Of a stretch of 32,635 nucleotides of DNA, positions 4,657-30,734 are shown piece by piece. Position numbers and translations under genes: made by a program. Under the pieces are notes generated by a model. That model did not search any database. It was not told where the DNA came from and was given only the letters and a program-made list of their open reading frames with translations. Position 1 is the first letter of the stretch. Every line of letters starts with the position of its first letter. The DNA is from a virus (lineage: Duplodnaviria > Heunggongvirae > Uroviricota > Caudoviricetes): IMG/VR virus record IMGVR_UViG_2627853795_000005, positions 1 through 32,635 of that record. One strand, 5' to 3'.

Positions 4657-4976
4657 GTAACCACTATGTACACACAAAAAAACCGCTTGCCATGCCGCAA
4701 TCAGTCAGGTTACATTTTCGCTGCACCTCATAAAACGGGTGCCGGGTTTCGCAGCCTGCTGACAACCAAAGCGCACAACCGCGCCAGCGGTTTTTTTGTG
4801 CGTACTGTATTGCCACGTTTTTTTCGCGTCAGAATTATGGCGGGGCGTACGGGGCCGACTTCGGTCGGGCCGGGTTCTTTGGTTGCCGGTACTGCGAACC
4901 CCGTACGTCTCGCCACCCACAGTTTCGCAGCTCTGGATGGTGAGTTTTCAAAACTTACAACCAAAGAGGCCACACC

Positions 4977-5207
4977 ATGGCAAACCGCAAACAGCACCGC
5001 GCTATCGCGGAGCGTCGTCACATCCAGACTGAAATCAACCGCAGACTTTCCCGCGCATTCCGCGTCGCTAAAATCATGCACATCAATATGCTGCATGAGC
5101 GTAGCTGCGAACTTTCAAACCTCTACTCATCCGCTGTTTTCAGTTATCTGGCGGATGATCTGCGCGAGCTTCAGCAGCTCATCCAGCAGCAAAACAAACT
5201 CCATTAA
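4977..5207 (+). CDS. Hypothetical small protein
   Basis: 76-aa ORF with AGAGG RBS 9 nt upstream; sits directly after a highly structured non-coding stretch. Confidence 0.45.
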   Translation: MANRKQHRAIAERRHIQTEINRRLSRAFRVAKIMHINMLHERSCELSNLYSSAVFSYLADDLRELQQLIQQQNKLH

Positions 5208-5279
5208 TTCCTGTTCCGGGCCTTTCCTGCACCTTGCGGCGGGAGGCCTTCGCACATCTGTAACAAGAGGATTGCCGCA

Positions 5280-5645
5280 ATGATTCTCGCCAACGACTTT
5301 CTTGAATACCTGCTCAACACAGAGCGTGATCTTGCCGTTCGCGTGCGTGAACGTTATGACATGTACCTGAAATCCCTGCCTGTACCGCAGCTCGCTGACG
5401 GAAAGATTGTTATTGATGGTCGCTACATGATTGACAGCCACGAGGGAAATTACAGGCTTTACCGCATTGAAGGTGGCACTCCGTCCGTTATTGGCATTTA
5501 CCAGCGCCCATCCTCTGCAATCGTCGATGTGATTGCCGACAGCATCCGCATCACACATCGCTATGCCGACACAGAAGACACCGTGCTGGAAATTCAGCGG
5601 CTGGCTGCCGTTTGCCGTGACACCCTGAACGGTATGACGCAGTAA
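5280..5645 (+). CDS. Hypothetical protein just upstream of the replication gene
   Basis: 121-aa ORF with AGAGGA RBS; 6-bp gap to A. Confidence 0.6.
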   Translation: MILANDFLEYLLNTERDLAVRVRERYDMYLKSLPVPQLADGKIVIDGRYMIDSHEGNYRLYRIEGGTPSVIGIYQRPSSAIVDVIADSIRITHRYADTEDTVLEIQRLAAVCRDTLNGMTQ

Positions 5646-5651
5646 ATCAGT

Positions 5652-8474
5652 ATGACGACAGAGTACATCAGGGACTGGCAACAACCGCGCCACGCAGTGG
5701 GGCGTGAAGGAACGGGGATCCCCGCACCTGAATCCGCGCTTTCCTCCTGGCTGGATGCCTACCAAGCAGAGAACGAGCGCCGACAGGAAAAGGCTGATGC
5801 GGCGTTCTCTGCCACGCCACTGGGCAACCTGATTAATAAAAGCCTGGACGCACAGGAAAAACAGGACAAAACCATCACGCTGGCAGGAGACGCCAGAAGA
5901 CAGGCACGCGGCACGGTGGATGAAGCCATGGCCTCGCTGCGCCTGCTGCCGTCCTATCTGCGCGATCCGCTTATTCGCCACCTCTCCTTCCTGCGCAAAA
6001 AACAGGAAGTCGATCGCCGGAAAGGCAAAAAGAGCTGGCAGGCGGAACGCTATGCACGCGGAACCCTGCGCAAAATATTCGAACGTCTGGATCGCACTGA
6101 CGGACACTGGCTGACACCGGGTTATCGCTCCCTTGCCGGACGCGAACGCCTGGACGATTTGCTTTACCTGCCGCAGCTCAACAAACACCAGATACAGACG
6201 CTGGCCACCATGACGGCGGCGATGTTCAGCAGCACCTTCGAAAAACTCTGCGATGGCTTTGGTGCGACTGATGGCGAGCTGACCATGGATGTAACGCTGA
6301 AGGCGTATCAGATGCTGGCCCGCATGGCGTTACACCTGCACGCCATGCCTCCGCATTATGACGCACTGACAACAGACAAAGACCGGAGGAACGAACCAGA
6401 CACGGAGCTGCTGCCGGGCGCAATCCTTCGCCTGACCTGTGCGGAATGGTGGAAACGCAAACTGTGGCTGTTACGTTGCGAGTGGAGAGAAGAACAACTC
6501 CGCGCCGCCTGTCTGGTTTCCAGAAAAACATCGCCCTATCTGAGCCAGGATGCGTTAAGCGAGTTTCGCGCACAGCGCGAGAAAACACGCGATTTCCTGA
6601 AAAGTTTCATGCTGGAAAACGAAGACGGGTTCACGATTGATCTTGAGACAGTGTATTACGCGGGAGTAAGTAACCCGGTTCACCGTAAGGCAGAAATGAT
6701 GGCCACCATGAAGGGGCTGGAACTTCTGGCCGAAGCCCGTGGCGACAGAGCGGTGTTTCTGACTGTCACCTGCCCGTCAAAATACCACGCAACAACGGAG
6801 AACGGTCATCCGAATCCCAAATGGAACGGGGCCACTATGCGCGACTCCAGCGATTACCTGGTTAACTCGTTTTTTGCGGCGGTCCGCAAGAAACTGAACC
6901 GCGACGGCCTGCGCTGGTATGGCATCCGCACGGTGGAGCCTCACCATGACGGCACCGTGCACTGGCATATGATGGTCTTTGCTCATCCGGAAGAAATCGA
7001 CACCATTGTGTCCCACACCCGCGATATTGCCATTCAGGAAGATCGTCACGAGCTGGGTGATGATATTACCCCACGCTTTAAGGCAGAGTACGTCGACGGC
7101 TCAAAAGGCACACCGACCAGCTACATCGCCACCTACATCGGGAAAAACCTGGACAGCCGTGCCGTGGATGGCATCGACCCGAAAACGGGCAAGCCACGCG
7201 TTGACCACGAAACAGGTAAATCAATGGCCGAGAGCGTGGAGCGTGCCATCGGCTGGGCGCGCCTTCACCGGGTCCGCCAGTTCCAGTTCTTTGGCATCCC
7301 CTCCCGTCAGGTGTGGCGTGAACTCCGCCGCCTTGCCAGCCAGATGGCACGCAACCCGGAAGGCCCGCAACGGCTGAAGGATGACGCAATGGATGCGGTA
7401 CTCGCTGCCGCTGATGCCGGATGTTTTGCCACCTACATTGAAAAACAGGGGGGCGTACTTGTTCCGCGCAAGGACTACCTGATTCGCACAGCCTACGACC
7501 TCGCAGATGAGCTGAACGATTACGGCGAGCAGAGTGTACAGATTTACGGGATCTGGTCGCCGCTCATTGGGGAGTCTTCCCGCGTATGCACGCATCCGGA
7601 TAACTGGAAGCTGGTAAGACGCAAACCGGAAGCGGAAGACAGCGCCCGCGAAAATGGTTTTGACCTTCAGGGCGGCCCTGCCGCCCCTTGGACTCGTGGC
7701 AATAACTGTCCCCGTGTACAGGAAACAGGCAACAACGGGACAGAACAGCCGGAAGAACGGCCAGCACCGTGGCCGCAGCTTCCTGACGGCGTTGAAGTAA
7801 ATGAATGGATGCGCTCACTGAAACGGCACGAACGCCGGGCGCTGATGCGTTCGCTTCGTGACAAACAGGCAAAAAACAGCAGCGATGAAATGCAGAACTG
7901 GACACAGAGCCGCAAACAGCAGCGGCCTTTGCCTGATAACCACGAGTTACTCGCTAAAGAATGGCGGGAGTCTGCTGAATCTCTCGGCCTGCATATCGGT
8001 GAACAACAGATGCAGCACCTGTTACGGGGCGGCAGTCTGTACGTTGACGGCAGCATCATTGCACCGCAGGGATTTGAAATTGTACGCAAACCGGATACCC
8101 GCCCGGACAGCCGAATCACGCAGCTCTGGCAGCGTCTGAGCCGTAATCATGGCGTAAGCAGCACGGAGATCCGCCATAACCCGGTCGCCAGCTATCTGGC
8201 ACAGCTGGGGGCATCAGACCCTGAAGCCGCCGCACGCCTGGCATCCACACTTCAGCAGGACCAGAACACCATGAAAACACCCGTTACCGTGCTTTCTGAC
8301 ATGCTGCGCGCCATCCGCGACGCAGAGCACGCACAGAGAATCAGTGAAACCACTGAACGCGCCAGCCGCAAAGCAGACCTGCTGCGGGGTGGCCTGACCA
8401 GTGGAAACAAAAAACAGACAGAAACGGGACTCACGAATCCCGTAAATGAGCAAAAAACGCGCAGCGATATATGA
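5652..8474 (+). CDS. A: Replication initiation endonuclease gpA (HUH rolling-circle initiator), with a long C-terminal extension
   Basis: 940-aa ORF; metal-binding motif HWHMMVFAH and paired catalytic tyrosines in YIATYIGK (Y-x3-Y), as in the P2 gpA family; synteny. Longer than my recollection of P2 gpA. Confidence 0.9.
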   Translation: MTTEYIRDWQQPRHAVGREGTGIPAPESALSSWLDAYQAENERRQEKADAAFSATPLGNLINKSLDAQEKQDKTITLAGDARRQARGTVDEAMASLRLLPSYLRDPLIRHLSFLRKKQEVDRRKGKKSWQAERYARGTLRKIFERLDRTDGHWLTPGYRSLAGRERLDDLLYLPQLNKHQIQTLATMTAAMFSSTFEKLCDGFGATDGELTMDVTLKAYQMLARMALHLHAMPPHYDALTTDKDRRNEPDTELLPGAILRLTCAEWWKRKLWLLRCEWREEQLRAACLVSRKTSPYLSQDALSEFRAQREKTRDFLKSFMLENEDGFTIDLETVYYAGVSNPVHRKAEMMATMKGLELLAEARGDRAVFLTVTCPSKYHATTENGHPNPKWNGATMRDSSDYLVNSFFAAVRKKLNRDGLRWYGIRTVEPHHDGTVHWHMMVFAHPEEIDTIVSHTRDIAIQEDRHELGDDITPRFKAEYVDGSKGTPTSYIATYIGKNLDSRAVDGIDPKTGKPRVDHETGKSMAESVERAIGWARLHRVRQFQFFGIPSRQVWRELRRLASQMARNPEGPQRLKDDAMDAVLAAADAGCFATYIEKQGGVLVPRKDYLIRTAYDLADELNDYGEQSVQIYGIWSPLIGESSRVCTHPDNWKLVRRKPEAEDSARENGFDLQGGPAAPWTRGNNCPRVQETGNNGTEQPEERPAPWPQLPDGVEVNEWMRSLKRHERRALMRSLRDKQAKNSSDEMQNWTQSRKQQRPLPDNHELLAKEWRESAESLGLHIGEQQMQHLLRGGSLYVDGSIIAPQGFEIVRKPDTRPDSRITQLWQRLSRNHGVSSTEIRHNPVASYLAQLGASDPEAAARLASTLQQDQNTMKTPVTVLSDMLRAIRDAEHAQRISETTERASRKADLLRGGLTSGNKKQTETGLTNPVNEQKTRSDI

Positions 8475-8522
8475 AGCGCGCACAAAACAGGCAAAAACGG
8501 GATTTCAGAATCCCGTAAACGA
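8411..8522. repeat. Two about 39-bp direct repeats (period 73 bp), each with a 6-bp-stem hairpin (acggga / tcccgt), spanning the A stop and the parM upstream region
   Basis: Read directly: 8411..8449 aaaacagacagaaacgggactcacgaatcccgtaaatga and 8484..8522 aaaacaggcaaaaacgggatttcagaatcccgtaaacga. Confidence 0.7.
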
Positions 8523-8550
8523 TTAATTAATCAACATAAGGAAAACCGAC

Positions 8551-9510
8551 ATGAAAATTTACATCGACGACGGCTCCACCAACATCAAGCTGGCATGGAC
8601 TGAGAACGGCGAACGCCGCAACGCCATCAGCCCGAACAGCTTCAAGTCGGAATGGTCTGCGCCGTTCGGTGGCTCGCAGCCTGCTAACTACATGCTTGAT
8701 GGCGTGCGCTATGGTTTTGATCCGGTCAGCGATCGCTTTGTCCAGACGACCGACACGCAATACCAGTACAGCGATGTGAATGTCATTGCCATTCATCACG
8801 CGCTGGTCAAATCAGACATCACGCCACAGGAAGTGGATGTGGTTGTTACCCTGCCACTGAGCGAATATTTCGACACAAACGCACAGCCGGACATGGCCAA
8901 CATCAACCGCAAAAAAGCGAACGTCATGCGCCCGGTGGAGTACCAGAACGGCGAAGCATTCACTATCCGTAACGTACGGGTTATGCCTGAATCCATTCCG
9001 GCTGGCTTTAAAGCACTGGCTGACATGAGTCCGTTTGAATCCCTGCTGATTGTGGATTTGGGCGGAACCACGCTGGATGTGGCAAAGGTTCAGGGGCAAC
9101 TGGCAGGTATCAGCCAGGTGTTTTGCGATCCACACGTAGGCGTTTCTCTTATGGCCGATGCCGTACTGTCGGTGATGGCCACTAACGGTATGCGCACCAG
9201 TCACCACATCGCCAATACCATTATCGAACATCGCCATAATGAAGCCTGGCTGCGCCAGCACATCCACAATGACGCGCATTACGCCAGCCTGATGGCGGTT
9301 ATTCGTGAAAAGGAAGAAACACTGAAACAACGCGTGATCCGCGCGCTGGCGGTTTTTTCGGGTTACGGGCGGGTGATGGTTGTCGGTGGCGGGGCGGAGA
9401 TTGTGGCACCCGCTATCCGCGAAGCCTGCGGAGTTAATGCGACTTTCATCGCGGACGGGGTGCCACAGTTTGCTCTGGTTAATGGGCTGTACGCAATGGA
9501 CAAGGAGTAA
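8551..9510 (+). CDS. parM: ParM/StbA-like actin-type segregation ATPase
   Basis: N-terminal IDDGSTNIKL motif, ISPNSF, QYSDVNV..HHAL, MPESIPAG, DLGGTTLD, GGGAE and LVNG blocks co-linear with recalled plasmid R1 ParM; AAGGAAAA RBS. Confidence 0.8.
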   Translation: MKIYIDDGSTNIKLAWTENGERRNAISPNSFKSEWSAPFGGSQPANYMLDGVRYGFDPVSDRFVQTTDTQYQYSDVNVIAIHHALVKSDITPQEVDVVVTLPLSEYFDTNAQPDMANINRKKANVMRPVEYQNGEAFTIRNVRVMPESIPAGFKALADMSPFESLLIVDLGGTTLDVAKVQGQLAGISQVFCDPHVGVSLMADAVLSVMATNGMRTSHHIANTIIEHRHNEAWLRQHIHNDAHYASLMAVIREKEETLKQRVIRALAVFSGYGRVMVVGGGAEIVAPAIREACGVNATFIADGVPQFALVNGLYAMDKE

Positions 9511-9514
9511 ACCA

Positions 9515-9826
9515 ATGACGACACCAACCAGACGGATAAGTTTCTATCTGAAGCCCGCCGCCGTCAAGAACGAAGGAGAAGCATGCGCCTGGCTGGACAG
9601 CCTTACACCAGAAGCCCGCAAAAGCGGCCAACGCGTGGCTTTTCTGGCCGGGCTGGCACTTCTGAAGACGAATCCGGCAGAGGCTTACCGACTGGCCGCA
9701 TGGGCTGATGATGAGATGTTACCTGTGACACAAATCAGCTCAAAAAAGTTTGAAGCACAGTCTGCACCAGTGGCTAAGATAACCAGCCAGATGGCTGGGA
9801 ATATCCGGGCGTTATTTCCTGAGTAA
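9515..9826 (+). CDS. parR: ParR-like adaptor / DNA-binding protein
   Basis: Directly downstream of parM (5-bp gap) with AAGGAG RBS; N-terminus RRISFYLKP and AFLAGLAL, C-terminal IRALFPE resemble recalled R1 ParR blocks; size about 100 aa. Confidence 0.6.
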   Translation: MTTPTRRISFYLKPAAVKNEGEACAWLDSLTPEARKSGQRVAFLAGLALLKTNPAEAYRLAAWADDEMLPVTQISSKKFEAQSAPVAKITSQMAGNIRALFPE

Positions 9827-9946
9827 AAGCATCTGCGCGAAAAATGCTCACGTTTATAGAGACAGTATCATTCCATTTGGCACACTTACTTCAATAATCG
9901 ATCTGTTAAACAAATAGATTGTCTATTATCTATCGATTAAAACGAT

Positions 9947-10011
9947 CAATTATCTTGACAGTAATGTGCCTTTTTGTAAGATCGTTCGCATTGTGAGCGA
10001 CAAGATAATTG
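9947..10011 (+). promoter_or_regulatory. Candidate sigma70 promoter bracketed by a perfect 11-bp inverted repeat (putative operators)
   Basis: TTGACA at 9955-9960 with TAAGAT about 16 bp downstream; CAATTATCTTG at 9947-9957 and its reverse complement CAAGATAATTG at 10001-10011. Confidence 0.45.
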
Positions 10012-10088
10012 CGCGGCATTGTCCATGCAAAACGCCCCAATAGCAGCAACTATTGGGGCGTAAAACTCGGTCGGACTCACTTAACCTG

Positions 10089-10174
10089 ATATGCGTGCCT
10101 TCCGAAGTAAATCAAAATGTGCGTCGTATATTTTATTGCTTACACGCACCTCTGTAAAGGCACGCATATTTTTC
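10089..10174 (+). promoter_or_regulatory. Long leader stem-loop (13-bp perfect inverted repeat) followed by a T-run, immediately upstream of the RBS of ORF 10191: candidate attenuator or cis-regulatory RNA
   Basis: ATATGCGTGCCTT at 10089-10101 pairs with AAGGCACGCATAT at 10157-10169, then TTTT; nested 6-bp inverted repeat gtgcgt/acgcac inside. Confidence 0.4.
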
Positions 10175-10190
10175 CTATGAGGTAAATAAA

Positions 10191-10460
10191 GTGCGGGCTA
10201 AAACAGGTATTTGCAAGAACCCTCATCGTTATAATCCAACATTTCTGTCTCTCCCTGAATATCAAGGACAAGAAGGTCGGCACAAATGCGCTGCCTGTGC
10301 TTTTGAGCTAGGCATAAAAGATGCGCTTGAAGGACGCGCTATGGCTCAGAATGATTTAGTTTTAGCTAACATTCCGTTTAGCCAGGCTGGAACTGTAAGG
10401 CACAGAGATGCCTATGAAGCATATGTTCGTGGTTGGCGATTAATAAACAGCAACAATTGA
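10191..10460 (+). CDS. Small Cys/His-containing protein of unknown function (hotspot cargo)
   Basis: 89-aa ORF with GTG start and GAGGT RBS 8 nt upstream; motif CKNPHRY...RHKCAACAFELG suggests possible metal binding; a strong intrinsic terminator follows the stop. Confidence 0.55.
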   Translation: MRAKTGICKNPHRYNPTFLSLPEYQGQEGRHKCAACAFELGIKDALEGRAMAQNDLVLANIPFSQAGTVRHRDAYEAYVRGWRLINSNN

Positions 10461-10468
10461 TACTTTTG

Positions 10469-10492
10469 AAGCGCCGATAAGGCGCTTTTTTT
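10469..10492 (+). terminator. Rho-independent terminator after ORF 10191..10460
   Basis: aagcgcc-gataa-ggcgctt stem-loop followed by a T7 run. Confidence 0.8.
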
Positions 10493-10493
10493 G

Positions 10494-10660
10494 TTTGCAC
10501 GATAGTGCACAAGTTTGCACAATTTTTTTGAACGACTTTTTGTACTTCCGGCCCGCGTGGTGGCTGGATCCGTCAAGGATCCGTACGTGCACAAAAAAAC
10601 GCGTTTTTTCTGCGCGCAGGTGACGGGGGAACAGCCCGCGTTTCAGAGGGTAAATAGCAT
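10494..10660. other. Candidate cos region (terminase recognition and cohesive-end site)
   Basis: Non-coding stretch downstream of Q with TTTGCAC x2, GGATCCGT x2, GTGCAC x2 and a 16-bp perfect palindrome AAAAAACGCGTTTTTT (10594-10609); GGTGACGGGGGAACAGCCC (10619-10637) loosely resembles the recalled P2/186 cohesive end (GGCGAGGCGGGGAAAGCAC). Exact cut sites not determinable. Confidence 0.35.
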
Positions 10661-10896
10661 CCCCTGAACGATGTCGCAGCGACACAACAGAATGGCTGTA
10701 TTTCTCACGCTGAGCGTGAAAAAGACGTGAGGGCTTTTGATTTGATGGGGTGGAAAATAAGGCCGTCAAAATCGCACTGAGGCGGCGAGAACATGCAGTC
10801 AGCGCAGTGGGATTGCGTAAGAGTCTGACCATCGATGATGGCAATAAGCAGGAAAGCGTCGTGAAATTATCTGATTGATACAGGAGCTGGAGAGTC

Positions 10897-10919
10897 GGGG
10901 CATAAATTTTTTATGCCCC
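10897..10919 (-). terminator. Perfect 10-bp-stem palindrome downstream of Q (possible terminator of the P-Q operon or packaging-related element)
   Basis: ggggcataaa-ttt-tttatgcccc, 27 bp beyond the Q stop codon. Confidence 0.3.
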
Positions 10920-10946
10920 GGCGAAGCAGCAGACAAGCGAAGCGCG

Positions 10947-22154: not shown

Positions 22155-24551
22155 ATGAGTACCACAACACGAAAATTTAAAACCGTTATCACCGATACGG
22201 GTGCAAAAAAATTAGCTCAGGCAGCCGCGCCAGATGGTAAGCCTGTCCGCCTGACTCATATGGCCGTGGGCGACGGTGGCGGCACGTTGCCCACACCAGA
22301 CAGTAAGCAGACCCGTCTGGTGCATGAGGTGTGGCGACACACTGTTAATCGCGTCATCCTGGACGCAACACATCAGAACCGCATTATTGCGGAGCTGGTT
22401 ATTCCTCCTGAAACGGGCGGATTCTGGATCCGGGAAATTGGTGTATTTGATGAGCACGGCGATTTAATCGCGGTGGGCAATACTGCGGAAAGTTACAAGC
22501 CAGCCGTTGCCGAAGGATCCGGACGTGCACAAACATTTCGCACCATTCTGACCGTATCCAGCACTGCCACCGTGGCGCTTACCGTGGATAACACCATGGT
22601 GATGGCCACAGTGGATTACGTGAATGACAAACTGAAAGAGCATGAACAGTCACGACGTCACCCGGATGCCTCGCTGACCGCAAAAGGCTTTGTTCAACTC
22701 AGTAGCGCCACTAACAGCGATTCTGAAACGCTGGCCGCAACGCCGAAAGCGGTTAAGGCCGCGTATGACCTGGCTAACGGAAAATATACCGCTCAGGACG
22801 CCACGACGGCACGAAAAGGGATAGTCCAGCTCAGTAGTGCCACCAACAGCACGTCTGAAACAGTGGCCGCGACACCGAAAGCGGTTAAGGCGGTAATGGA
22901 TGAAACGAACAAGAAAGCGCCCTTAAACAGCCCGGCGCTGACCGGAACGCCAACAACACCAACTGCGCGACAGGGAACGAATAATACCCAAATCGCAAGC
23001 ACGGCTTATGTGATGGCCGCGATTGCCGCCCTTGTAGATTCGTCACCTGATGCACTGAACACGCTGAACGAGCTGGCGGCGGCGCTGGGAAACGACCCGA
23101 ATTTTGCGACCACCATGACTAACGCGCTTGCGGGTAAGCAACCGAAAGATGCCACCCTGACGGCGCTGGCCGGGCTTGCTACTGCGGCAGACAGGTTTCC
23201 GTATTTTGCGGGGAATGATGTCGCCAGCCTGGCAACCCTGACAAAAGTCGGGCGGGATATTCTTGCGAAATCGACCGTTGCCGCTGTTATCGAATACCTC
23301 GGTTTACAGGAAACGGTAAATCAGGCTTCTGGCGCATTACAAAAAAACCAGAACGGCGCAGATATTCCTGATAAGGATCGCTTCCTGAGTAACATTAATG
23401 TTTACAGCAAAGGCGAGGTGGATAAGAAAAAAGGAATGCAGCAGTACGCATTTAATGCGCCGTCTAATGCAGTTGGTGGAAAGTGGTATCCAGTTATTTT
23501 CCGGCGTTCCACAGGCAGCACTGGCGAGCTGGCTTCCAGAGTGATTATAACGACCACATCTGCCGGCGGTAATTACGAAATGAATAACTGCGAATTCAAT
23601 GGAATGGTAATGCCTGGTGGCTGGACTGATCGTGGTTCATATGCGGCAGGTTATTTTTCGACGTATCAGACTAATGAGCGCGCAATCCATTCCATTGTAA
23701 CAAGCCTTAAAGAAGATGATGTATGCAGCGTTTTTTACGTTGAAGGCAGGGCTTTTCCTGTGCGGGTTTCTGCTGAAGAAGGGCTAACGGTTATTGTTCC
23801 AACTCAGGATTATACCGTCGGTCAAACAACATATAAGTGGGGAGCAACTAATCCCGCGACAGAAAGCACGAACGCACAAGCTATTCTGGATTTTAACAAT
23901 GGGCGAGGGTTTTATTGTTCTCACTCAATATTCGGTATTAATGCCATTTTTAGCGGAAATCTGGGGATTGGAACGGCTAATGCCCTGGGTGGCAATTCAA
24001 TAGTTTTAGGAGATAACGATACCGGGTTTAAACAAAATGGTGATGGGGTGCTGGATGCTTATGCTAATGGTGTGCATGTATTCCGCTTTAGAAATGGTTC
24101 AGCAATATCATTAAAGGGTATTCAGGCTGGGGAAAGTAAGTTATTCACACTTTCAAGCGCAAATACCGCTGCCCGTAATGCATCATTTAACTTGTGGGGA
24201 AATTCGTCAAGACCAATTGTTGTAGAGCTTGGTGATGATTCAGGCTGGCATTTCTGTAGTCAGCGGAATACAGATAACTCGGTGATATTTGCTGTAAACG
24301 GTCAGATACAACCAAGCAATTGGGGTAACATTGATTCCCGATATGTAAAGGATGTTCGGCTTGGCTCACAGCAATATTATGGTGTAAACAACTGGCAAAC
24401 ATGGGACTTCCAGTGCCCATCGGGCTATGTACTGACGGGTATCAATGTTCAGGATGTCGGGAAAAACTCTGCCGATAATATTGCGGGCGTTTATTACAGA
24501 CCCGTTCAAAAATATATAAATGGCACCTGGTATAATGTAGCGAGCGTTTAA
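22155..24551 (+). CDS. H: Tail fibre protein gpH (conserved N-terminal anchor, divergent lower-GC distal part)
   Basis: 798 aa; N-terminus and [20 protein letters not shown] repeat match recalled P2 gpH; C-terminal end ...[16 protein letters not shown]. Confidence 0.9.
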
Positions 24552-29550: not shown

Positions 29551-30734
29551 CAGGCACCTCCCAGCACCGCAAATGCGGGACCAAAGAATTCATCAGTAAA
29601 CGACTGGTAAAGCTCCATGTCTTCCAGCGGGGGAACAGGCGTATATTTGTAGCGAATACGCACGCGCCCCTGACGTAAATTCGTGGTGCCGTTATCCACC
29701 ACGTCATACCAGCACGACGCCCCAATCAGTTTCCCGGCAGTAACCAGTGAATCCAGTTTTGCCCTGATAGCACTGATAACATCCTTCACGTTCGCAGGCG
29801 TCAGTGGACTGTCGATGGTTTCAAACTGCGCTTCCGCAATTGAATCAGCCAGCACCTGTGCGGTTCGGGTATACACCTCAAAGATGTAGGCGTTCGTTTC
29901 CGGTGTGCGGTTGCCCCAGAAGCGGAACCCGTTGCGACGAATAATGGTCGTGATTTCTTTGTTGTTGAGGCTGTTGGCATCACTGTCTTCGGCCTGCAAC
30001 GACCAGAACACATGCCTGGACATCCCCAGCACATTTTTAACCGGAACGTTGGACAGCGATTTGTGCCAGCCCTGCTCATGGTCAATGTACGCACGAAGGC
30101 CGCACGCATAGGCAGGCGCGGGGAACGTTTCGTTTTTGCCACTTTTCGGGTTGTAGGCGATGAAGTCCGGCCATAAGAGCATCACCTCACGTTCGTTGAA
30201 TTTCTGGCGGTAGGTAATTGCCTCAGCCATCGTGTTACAGTCATGACATGAGGCATACACAAACGCGCGCAGTTTACCCGCAATCACGCACAGGGATTTT
30301 GTCACCGCCTCCGTGTCCAGCTCCGGCGCGGCCAGAATACGCGGACGGTATCCGATGCTTTCATCCTGCTCTGCAACAAGCAGCGCATACATCCCCGTAT
30401 AGCTGCCGTCATCCTCAGAACCACCGATAACCAGTTGATCCTGCGTCTTACCGCCTTCTTCTTTGTGTTCAGCCACGCGAACGACGATCACTTTTGTGCT
30501 CACCTGGTCTGCGATAGCCTTAAGCGCACGATAAAGCGTCCCCGTAGTCCCGCATTTTCCCAGCACGTCATTGACGCGGGTCAGCAGTGTGGGCTTGTTC
30601 AGCGGGAACAGCTCCGCATCCGCATCATCCGCCGTTGCCACGATACCGATAACGCTGGAATCAACATCATTAATCGCTGTTACCAGGTCGGTACTTTCCG
30701 TGACACGGGCACCATGAAAACGAGTTTCACTCAT
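29550..30734 (-). CDS. FI: Contractile tail sheath protein gpFI
   Basis: 394 aa; AELFPLNKP, KLRAFVYAS, WPDF, IDHEQGWHKSLSNV, IIRRNGFRFWGNRT, YTRTAQVLADS, YTPVPPLE blocks match recalled P2 gpFI. Confidence 0.9.
   Translation of the reverse strand: MSETRFHGARVTESTDLVTAINDVDSSVIGIVATADDADAELFPLNKPTLLTRVNDVLGKCGTTGTLYRALKAIADQVSTKVIVVRVAEHKEEGGKTQDQLVIGGSEDDGSYTGMYALLVAEQDESIGYRPRILAAPELDTEAVTKSLCVIAGKLRAFVYASCHDCNTMAEAITYRQKFNEREVMLLWPDFIAYNPKSGKNETFPAPAYACGLRAYIDHEQGWHKSLSNVPVKNVLGMSRHVFWSLQAEDSDANSLNNKEITTIIRRNGFRFWGNRTPETNAYIFEVYTRTAQVLADSIAEAQFETIDSPLTPANVKDVISAIRAKLDSLVTAGKLIGASCWYDVVDNGTTNLRQGRVRIRYKYTPVPPLEDMELYQSFTDEFFGPAFAVLGGA

Follow-up and report, generated by a model that had tools for sequence, protein, structure and literature searches.

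Why do two copies of a short inverted-repeat sequence straddle the stop codon of a phage replication gene, directly ahead of a plasmid-type partition operon? The locus lies in a complete prophage of the P2 family (P88 / Xuanwuvirus type; 95-98% identity to phages 520873, P88 and phiSM) that makes up our window, that is, the whole stretch of 32,635 nucleotides that was analysed (IMG/VR virus record IMGVR_UViG_2627853795_000005, positions 1 to 32,635); in this window the replication gene A is followed by parM and parR, the genes for an actin-like segregation ATPase and its predicted DNA-binding adaptor. An earlier note on this sequence had set three readings of the repeats side by side: a parC-like centromere/operator for ParR, a nick or origin element for the A protein (gpA), and a pair of terminators. 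We assign a probability of about 0.8 to the first, that is, the two repeats probably are the parC centromere/operator of a type II (ParMRC) partition cassette, with two dyads instead of ten direct iterons; the parMRC cassette is cargo in the gpA-gpQ hotspot of the P88-like prophage. The repeats are non-random, co-inherited with parM-parR, conserved in sequence and laid out like the parC sites of related plasmids; we infer that the dyads bind ParR, act as a centromere and mediate autoregulation.

A repeat search of the window identifies a family of direct repeats with two copies at this junction (8408-8449 and 8481-8522); the copies are 42 nt long, are 81% identical, and start 73 bp apart. The two hairpin-bearing repeats described earlier are real and their spacing is indeed 73 bp, with a length slightly greater than the ~39 bp first proposed. 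The copies match at 34 of 42 positions; in 100 first-order Markov simulations of the window, matches between pairs separated by no more than 200 bp never exceeded 30 of 42, so the pair is non-random. Each copy contains ACGGGA-N8-TCCCGT with zero mismatches (8424-8443 and 8497-8516), and these are the sole perfect matches in the window; the fuller form of the dyad has 8+4+8 bases, ACGGGATT-N4-AATCCCGT, with the core consensus CGGGAYT-N4-AATCCCG. This form is perfect in copy 2; copy 1 of the window has a single mismatch (C at 8430, where most relatives have T). No further dyads are found elsewhere in the window, where matches with three mismatches occur at chance level. Gene A occupies 5652-8474 (940 amino acids, aa; Phage_GPA domain) and its stop codon, TGA at 8472-8474, is separated from the start of parM at 8551 by a gap of 76 bp; copy 1 falls within the final 22 codons of A and copy 2 within this gap, in agreement with the placement originally given. 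The region has a low GC content (0.41-0.45) and an A-over-T skew that reaches 0.71. Its parts are as follows.

8408-8449, plus strand: repeat block 1, from the repeat search, inside the end of gene A; an A-rich flank, dyad 1 and TAAATGA.
8424-8443, no strand assigned: dyad 1, ACGGGACT-CACG-AATCCCGT, a putative site for two ParR dimers; the arms are perfect (GGGATT) in most relatives.
8450-8480, plus strand: central spacer of 31 bp, with GC-rich flanks and the AT-rich core GATATAT; the most variable part.
8481-8522, plus strand: repeat block 2, from the repeat search, in the A-parM intergenic gap.
8497-8516, no strand assigned: dyad 2, ACGGGATT-TCAG-AATCCCGT, with perfect 8-bp arms; the loop is TTCAGA, TTTAAA or TTGAAA in relatives.

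The two genes that follow the repeats are recognized as the protein components of a partition system.

8551-9510, plus strand: parM, actin-like segregation ATPase, 319 aa (Pfam StbA_N, 9.7e-81; ParM C-terminal domain, 3e-68).
9515-9826, plus strand: parR, predicted ribbon-helix-helix centromere-binding adaptor, 103 aa (Pfam PF10784 Plasmid_stab_B, E 9.8e-24).

The ParM encoded by the window matches the ParM of plasmid R1 over its full length (PDB 1mwk, E 7.7e-92) and shares 46-52% identity with plasmid ParMs; in the first 120 nt of parM, 21 of the 27 variable positions are third codon positions, and by this measure ParM is under purifying selection. A profile of ParR relatives matches the solved pB171 ParR/StbB (PDB 2jd3, E 0.0025). 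Among ParR variants that share 42-98% identity, the N-terminal RRISFYLKP is invariant and the C-terminal tail (here NIRALFPE) is conserved, with a linker that varies between them; this tail can be aligned with those of plasmid ParRs, which read NxxxLFPD. To judge from these alignments, the layout is the one expected for a centromere-binding adaptor, that is, a predicted DNA-reading strand, a linker and a putative ParM-binding tail. An AlphaFold2 model of the ParR monomer was of low confidence (pLDDT 52.8), and none of these conclusions draws on it.

Do the repeats belong to gene A, in which the first of them lies, or to parM-parR? Two loci with A 3' regions unlike that of the window provide the boundaries: L096 (from IMG/VR), in which the 3' part of A is different again, and L003 (strain SWHEFF_58), which has a different, shorter A (768 aa) and an extra open reading frame (ORF), followed by both repeats, parM and parR. 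Homology of these loci to the window spans 8410-9826 (95.8% for L096, ~90.6% for L003) and so begins with repeat 1 and ends at the stop codon of parR; in both of the unrelated upstream contexts, homology starts at 8410, 14 bp before dyad 1. In L003, the piece that carries repeat 1 is labelled by PGAP as an N-terminally truncated relic of a replication protein. At the other end, the matches of the window to P88-like phages likewise stop at 9826. Three further loci have P88-type A genes but other cargo (L004, L005 and L006, with A proteins of 941, 927 and 915 aa); in these, similarity to the window is lost after ~8374, and A is followed by a Dam methylase and an AAA ATPase (L004), an AAA ATPase and an S8 peptidase (L005) or three unnamed genes (L006). 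Neither the repeats nor a GGGAYT-N4-AATCC dyad is found in these three loci, which lack parMR. Because of the homology limits in L003 and L096 and the absence of the repeats from L004-L006, we conclude that the repeats are part of a 1.4-kb parC-parM-parR cassette. The earlier note had proposed examining the repeats in relatives without parMR as a check, and the outcome favours the centromere. The boundaries define two additional features.

8410-9826, plus strand: self-contained parC-parM-parR cassette that recombines between phage backgrounds, delimited by the homology limits in L096 and L003.
8410-8474, plus strand: cassette-encoded C-terminal tail of gene A, ending in KKQTETGLTNPVNEQKTRSDI, and stop codon; A genes with other cargo diverge after ~8374 and have different ends (915-941 aa).

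The left edge of the gpA-gpQ cargo hotspot is located inside the A frame (window 8375-8474 compared with L004:4040-4180, L005 and L006), and the tail and stop codon differ with the cargo. Each cargo type gives A its own tail and stop (940, 941, 927 and 915 aa); therefore, the extreme C-terminus of A seems to be dispensable and cargo-encoded.

The cassette is widespread: the A-parM junction is present in 1371 of 5426 complete E. coli genomes (1531 places in chromosomes, versus 2 on plasmids), and the orientation of the cassette is always that of the early operon. Two dyads are found in 84 of the 88 loci of this parM lineage and one dyad in the remaining 4. One of these 4 (L055; IMG/VR 2657245439_000011) is a natural one-dyad allele, in which a clean 73-bp deletion (the equivalent of 8420-8492) fuses the repeats.

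Variation among relatives suggests what is conserved in the dyads. In 16 arm pairs from 51-52 distinct haplotypes, all of the changes are one-sided, with zero compensatory double changes; the C-A mismatch in stem 1 is present in 21 of 51 haplotypes. The central GGGA/TCCC is essentially invariant, the 4-nt loops change freely, and almost every haplotype retains the 73-bp spacing. The relative that has diverged most, from Hafnia (ParM 93% identical), retains the GGGATT-N4-AATCCC cores but differs in the loops, the outer arm bases and the central spacer. (Counts of variability per region are distorted in the 3' segment of A by non-homologous rows from L003, L096 and Hafnia, and these counts are used qualitatively only.) Because the arm changes are exclusively one-sided, the cores invariant and the loops free to change, the conservation is, on this pattern, that of sequence, as in a dyad bound by protein, and not that of a folded RNA or DNA stem. 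L096 has the same G-to-A change in the left arm of both dyads (ACAGGATT, at the equivalents of 8426 and 8499), with right arms and ParR N-terminus unchanged; this shared change suggests gene conversion between the copies.

A structured RNA at the repeats was also considered and rejected: the site has no Rfam family, ordinary hairpin energies and no compensatory changes. At the repeats, Rfam yields nothing at gathering thresholds and, with E values up to 10, a single 8.3-bit chance match. The single hairpins fold with -9 to -13 kcal/mol (z-scores of -1.6 to -2.8), values that are unremarkable; a 150-nt fold has a z-score of -4.5, but in this fold one dyad pairs with the other, so the value adds no independent support.

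How does this site compare with known partition sites? The parC site of plasmid R1 is 159 bp long and has ten 11-bp direct iterons, five on each side of a 39-bp promoter region; approximately one ParR dimer is bound per iteron, and the site is both centromere and operator (PMC2241845). Like the parC of R1/R100 (parA, stbAB), the site in the window is immediately upstream of parM-parR and has two repeat blocks in an A-rich, low-GC stretch; in an R1-like locus (L012), the blocks are spaced by 72 bp (73 bp in the window) and the top strand is similarly A-rich. The protein partners are also alike: the ParMs are homologous, and the ParRs belong to the same Pfam family and share the layout of N-terminal strand and C-terminal tail. 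The differences are that the window has two 42-nt blocks with one 8-4-8 inverted repeat each and a 31-bp spacer, 115 bp in total, and no clear promoter; that its ParM is ~46% identical to R1-like ParM and its ParR is too diverged for detection by tblastn at E < 1e-3; and that the host replicon is an integrating phage instead of a plasmid. We find no sequence similarity between R1 parC and the site in the window.

Outside of the phage lineage, the closest ParMs (50-52% identity) are those of IncL/M, IncK/Z and related enterobacterial plasmids (L013, L014, L020 and L024). Two repeat blocks are again located upstream of parM, 73 bp apart in IncL/M, 72 bp in L020 and 73 bp in L024, the same or nearly the same as the 73 bp in the window; IncK2/Z (L014) differs, with repeats spaced by 82 and 123 bp. 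The IncL/M and IncK ParRs (L013 and L014) share the tail motif N-x-x-x-L-F-P-D/E. However, the parC sites of these plasmids are runs of 10-11-bp direct iterons (e.g., GTATTTTTCT or AAnTAnTTCTC) that are T-rich on the parM strand, with recognizable -35 and -10 boxes between the blocks, and the GGGATT-N4-AATCCC dyad is absent from all four loci.

The window has several hallmarks of a parC locus, that is, a cis site directly upstream of parM-parR, an actin-like ParM/StbA ATPase, a ParR/StbB-type adaptor and two repeat blocks, with the exception that each block contains one 8-4-8 inverted repeat in place of an array of 10-11-bp direct iterons. A hidden 10-11-bp direct periodicity of AAAC motifs or A-tracts is not significant (42 of 236 shuffles reached the phasing of AAAC). 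The travel of the repeats with the cassette, their absence where parMR is absent and the two-block layout with its 73-bp spacing support the parC-like centromere/operator that the earlier note had listed as one option.

Several observations weigh against parC. The site is unlike every characterized parC of this family, and two dyads would accommodate ~4 ParR dimers versus 10 in R1. The lineage is narrow: ParMs are either at least 92% or only ~50% identical, and the DNA-reading strand of ParR never varies. Nearly all copies are chromosomal (1531 versus 2 on plasmids), where a plasmid centromere has no obvious use. Finally, there is no convincing sigma-70 promoter inside or beside the repeats, which weakens the case for an operator role. 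A consensus promoter scan of 8400-8550 finds none, and a rough weight-matrix scan gives weak, inconsistent candidates only, either a -35 box in the loop of dyad 2 (the best candidate for that box) or the central GATATA (TATAAG in Hafnia); by analogy with the promoters in plasmid parC sites (L012-L014), the AT-rich core of the spacer is a candidate -10 box, also with weak promoter scores. It is possible that the cassette is transcribed by read-through from upstream.

If the repeats are parC, the site could work as follows. A ribbon-helix-helix dimer of ParR would read the half-sites GGGAYT and AATCCC, which are 10 bp apart centre to centre, so that each dyad would hold two ParR dimers head to head, one helical turn apart, as at other ribbon-helix-helix operators. 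Because the dyads are 73 bp or ~7 helical turns apart in an A-rich, low-GC stretch, they would face the same side of the DNA. The ParR-parC complex would then hold the ends of ParM filaments by the conserved C-terminal tail of ParR, and the filaments would separate extrachromosomal phage DNA molecules by pushing them apart. The complex probably also represses transcription of parMR, given that every candidate position for the promoter is either flanked or overlapped by the sites. A more specific version of this proposal, which we put forward tentatively and consider unlikely, is a minimal dyad-type centromere in which two sites for ParR tetramers, seven turns apart, replace the ten-iteron scaffold of R1 and in which the real job is other than classical plasmid maintenance. 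It would act for a ParMRC cassette that is carried as mobile cargo in the P2 defence hotspot and that about one quarter of E. coli strains have in their chromosome. Possible jobs for such a centromere are the positioning or distribution of phage circles that have been excised or are replicating, centromere incompatibility against related phages or plasmids, or even, on expression in lysogens, an interaction with the host chromosome.

The dyads might instead be operators only, for ParR or another phage regulator, that control expression of parMR or A and have no centromere role. An 8-4-8 dyad is typical of operators for dimeric repressors, the best -35 candidate, itself weak, overlaps dyad 2, and segregation is not needed in the chromosome, the location of most copies. 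However, the sites travel with parMR across different early regions, contrary to what a regulator in the phage backbone predicts, and one site serves as both operator and centromere in the characterized members of the family (PMC2241845); moreover, ParM appears to be under purifying selection and the putative ParM-contacting tail of ParR is conserved, so we regard a purely regulatory role as improbable.

Less probable still is that the hairpins are intrinsic terminators of antisense (minus-strand) transcription through parMR, or insulators of the cassette. Both hairpins match the pattern of a minus-strand terminator, and the second has an 8-bp stem, a 4-nt loop and TTTTT; the T-run that the earlier note described on the minus strand after this hairpin is present (ACGGGATTCTGAAATCCCGT TTTTGCCTGT), but it arises from the A-rich flank within the repeat, to which it is complementary. 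Between the portal gene and the repeats there is no minus-strand gene or promoter-like site, save antisense parMR, and a separate hairpin near 10897-10921, bidirectional in appearance, belongs to the portal gene. The C-A mismatch in stem 1 is uncompensated in the 21 of 51 haplotypes that have it, and compensatory changes number 0 in 16 pairs. With no U-run on the plus (coding) strand, nothing obvious to terminate and no compensatory changes in the stems, the proposal of paired terminators is a weak one.

We give an equally low rating to the idea that the repeats are a functionless, neutral relic of a local duplication or of the insertion of the cassette. The allele in L055, from which recombination between the copies has removed precisely one 73-bp unit, fits such a relic; in contrast, only 42 of the 73 bp are alike between the copies, with arms that are identical in most haplotypes and loops that differ, Hafnia keeps the cores despite a diverged spacer, and nearly all haplotypes keep the spacing.

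The remaining proposal is that the repeats are the replication origin (ori) or nick site, or accessory ori repeats, for gpA, a rolling-circle initiator. Dyads are common at rolling-circle origins. Repeat 1 is inside the A frame, as is the nick site of P2; in the P2 record, the rep_origin (A nick site) is annotated at 29892, inside A, with the sequence GCGGCATCGCCGCGCCTCGGAGTCCTGTCAATAACTGT. The window contains a homolog of this site, at a different position.

7672-7711, plus strand: homolog of the P2 replication nick site (ori), blastn 79% over 38 nt, E 6e-4; ~730 bp upstream of the repeats.

The homolog is collinear in the alignment of the A proteins (AAPRSPVNNC in P2, AAPWTRGNNC in the window), and L004, without parMR, has the same sequence there; on these comparisons, the likely ori is located ~730 bp upstream of the repeats. 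The P2 ori and the repeats are alike in their location in the 3' part of the A frame and differ in sequence and position. The P88-type A genes with other cargo (L004-L006) keep the nick site and have no repeats, and L003, with its different, shorter A, has the repeats together with parMR. With the homolog of the P2 nick site elsewhere in A and the repeats not co-inherited with A, we reject the nick/origin reading, which is the least credible of all.

The partition genes themselves are already known: according to Rousset et al. 2022 (PMC9122126), the gpA-gpQ hotspot of approximately one quarter of the P2-like phages of E. coli contains a putative plasmid partitioning system, with the same genes in the same locus as in the window; in the passages found in the main text the mention is brief, and ParM and segregation are not found as terms. 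For the cis site, the dyad architecture, the exact boundaries of the cassette and the overlap with the A frame, we find no description in the literature searched, so this parC appears to be undescribed there. Because the partition genes have been reported, what we add is a refinement of a known system, not a new system. If ParR binds both dyads, the centromere is much smaller than R1 parC and is organized differently, with four inverted half-sites versus ten direct iterons, which bears on the number of ParR dimers that are needed to capture the end of a ParM filament. The compact 1.4-kb parC-parM-parR module, which is extremely common, passes from one P2-like phage to another, and it is the source of the final 22 codons of A and of its stop codon. 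With the cis site known, the reason that an integrating phage keeps a plasmid partition system becomes directly testable.

Several additional observations were made on P88-like phages and on other parts of the window. Complete P88-like genomes with an integrase have been deposited as separate circular molecules of 31-37 kb (L106, NZ_CP148288.1; CP025923; CP025874); the 34.5-kb pZ1323PEC0009-2 is an example. L106 also has a Hok/Gef toxin gene near ogr, so both of the classic stability functions of plasmid R1 (parMRC and hok) are found in one P2-like phage.

The left end of the window encodes an integrase, a helix-turn-helix repressor-like protein and Cox; the genes for the portal, tail protein D and Ogr are located further to the right. 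The stretch between parR and the portal gene (9827-10946) is AT-rich (GC down to 0.30) and differs between P88-like phages; it contains a good promoter-like site (TTGACA-16-TAAGAT, 9955-9982) and an 89-aa ORF without a Pfam match (10191-10460), followed by a hairpin and a T-run, and looks like a separate small moron. To the left of A, Rfam matches at gathering level are found on the plus strand for the Hfq-binding RNA isrK (65.9 bits, 4723-4797) and the C4 antisense RNA (87.1 bits, 4833-4920), inside or adjoining an Ash-family ORF (4666-5283); these suggest a c4-type immunity module in the style of P1/P7 in this P2-like prophage. The only other repeat in the window that is as strong as the pair at the A-parM junction is a 96-nt direct repeat (22664-22759 and 22796-22891; 77% identical), with a third, partial copy near 22998; its spacing is 132 bp (44 codons), and it is located inside a 798-aa ORF (22155-24551) that is probably the tail fibre gene.

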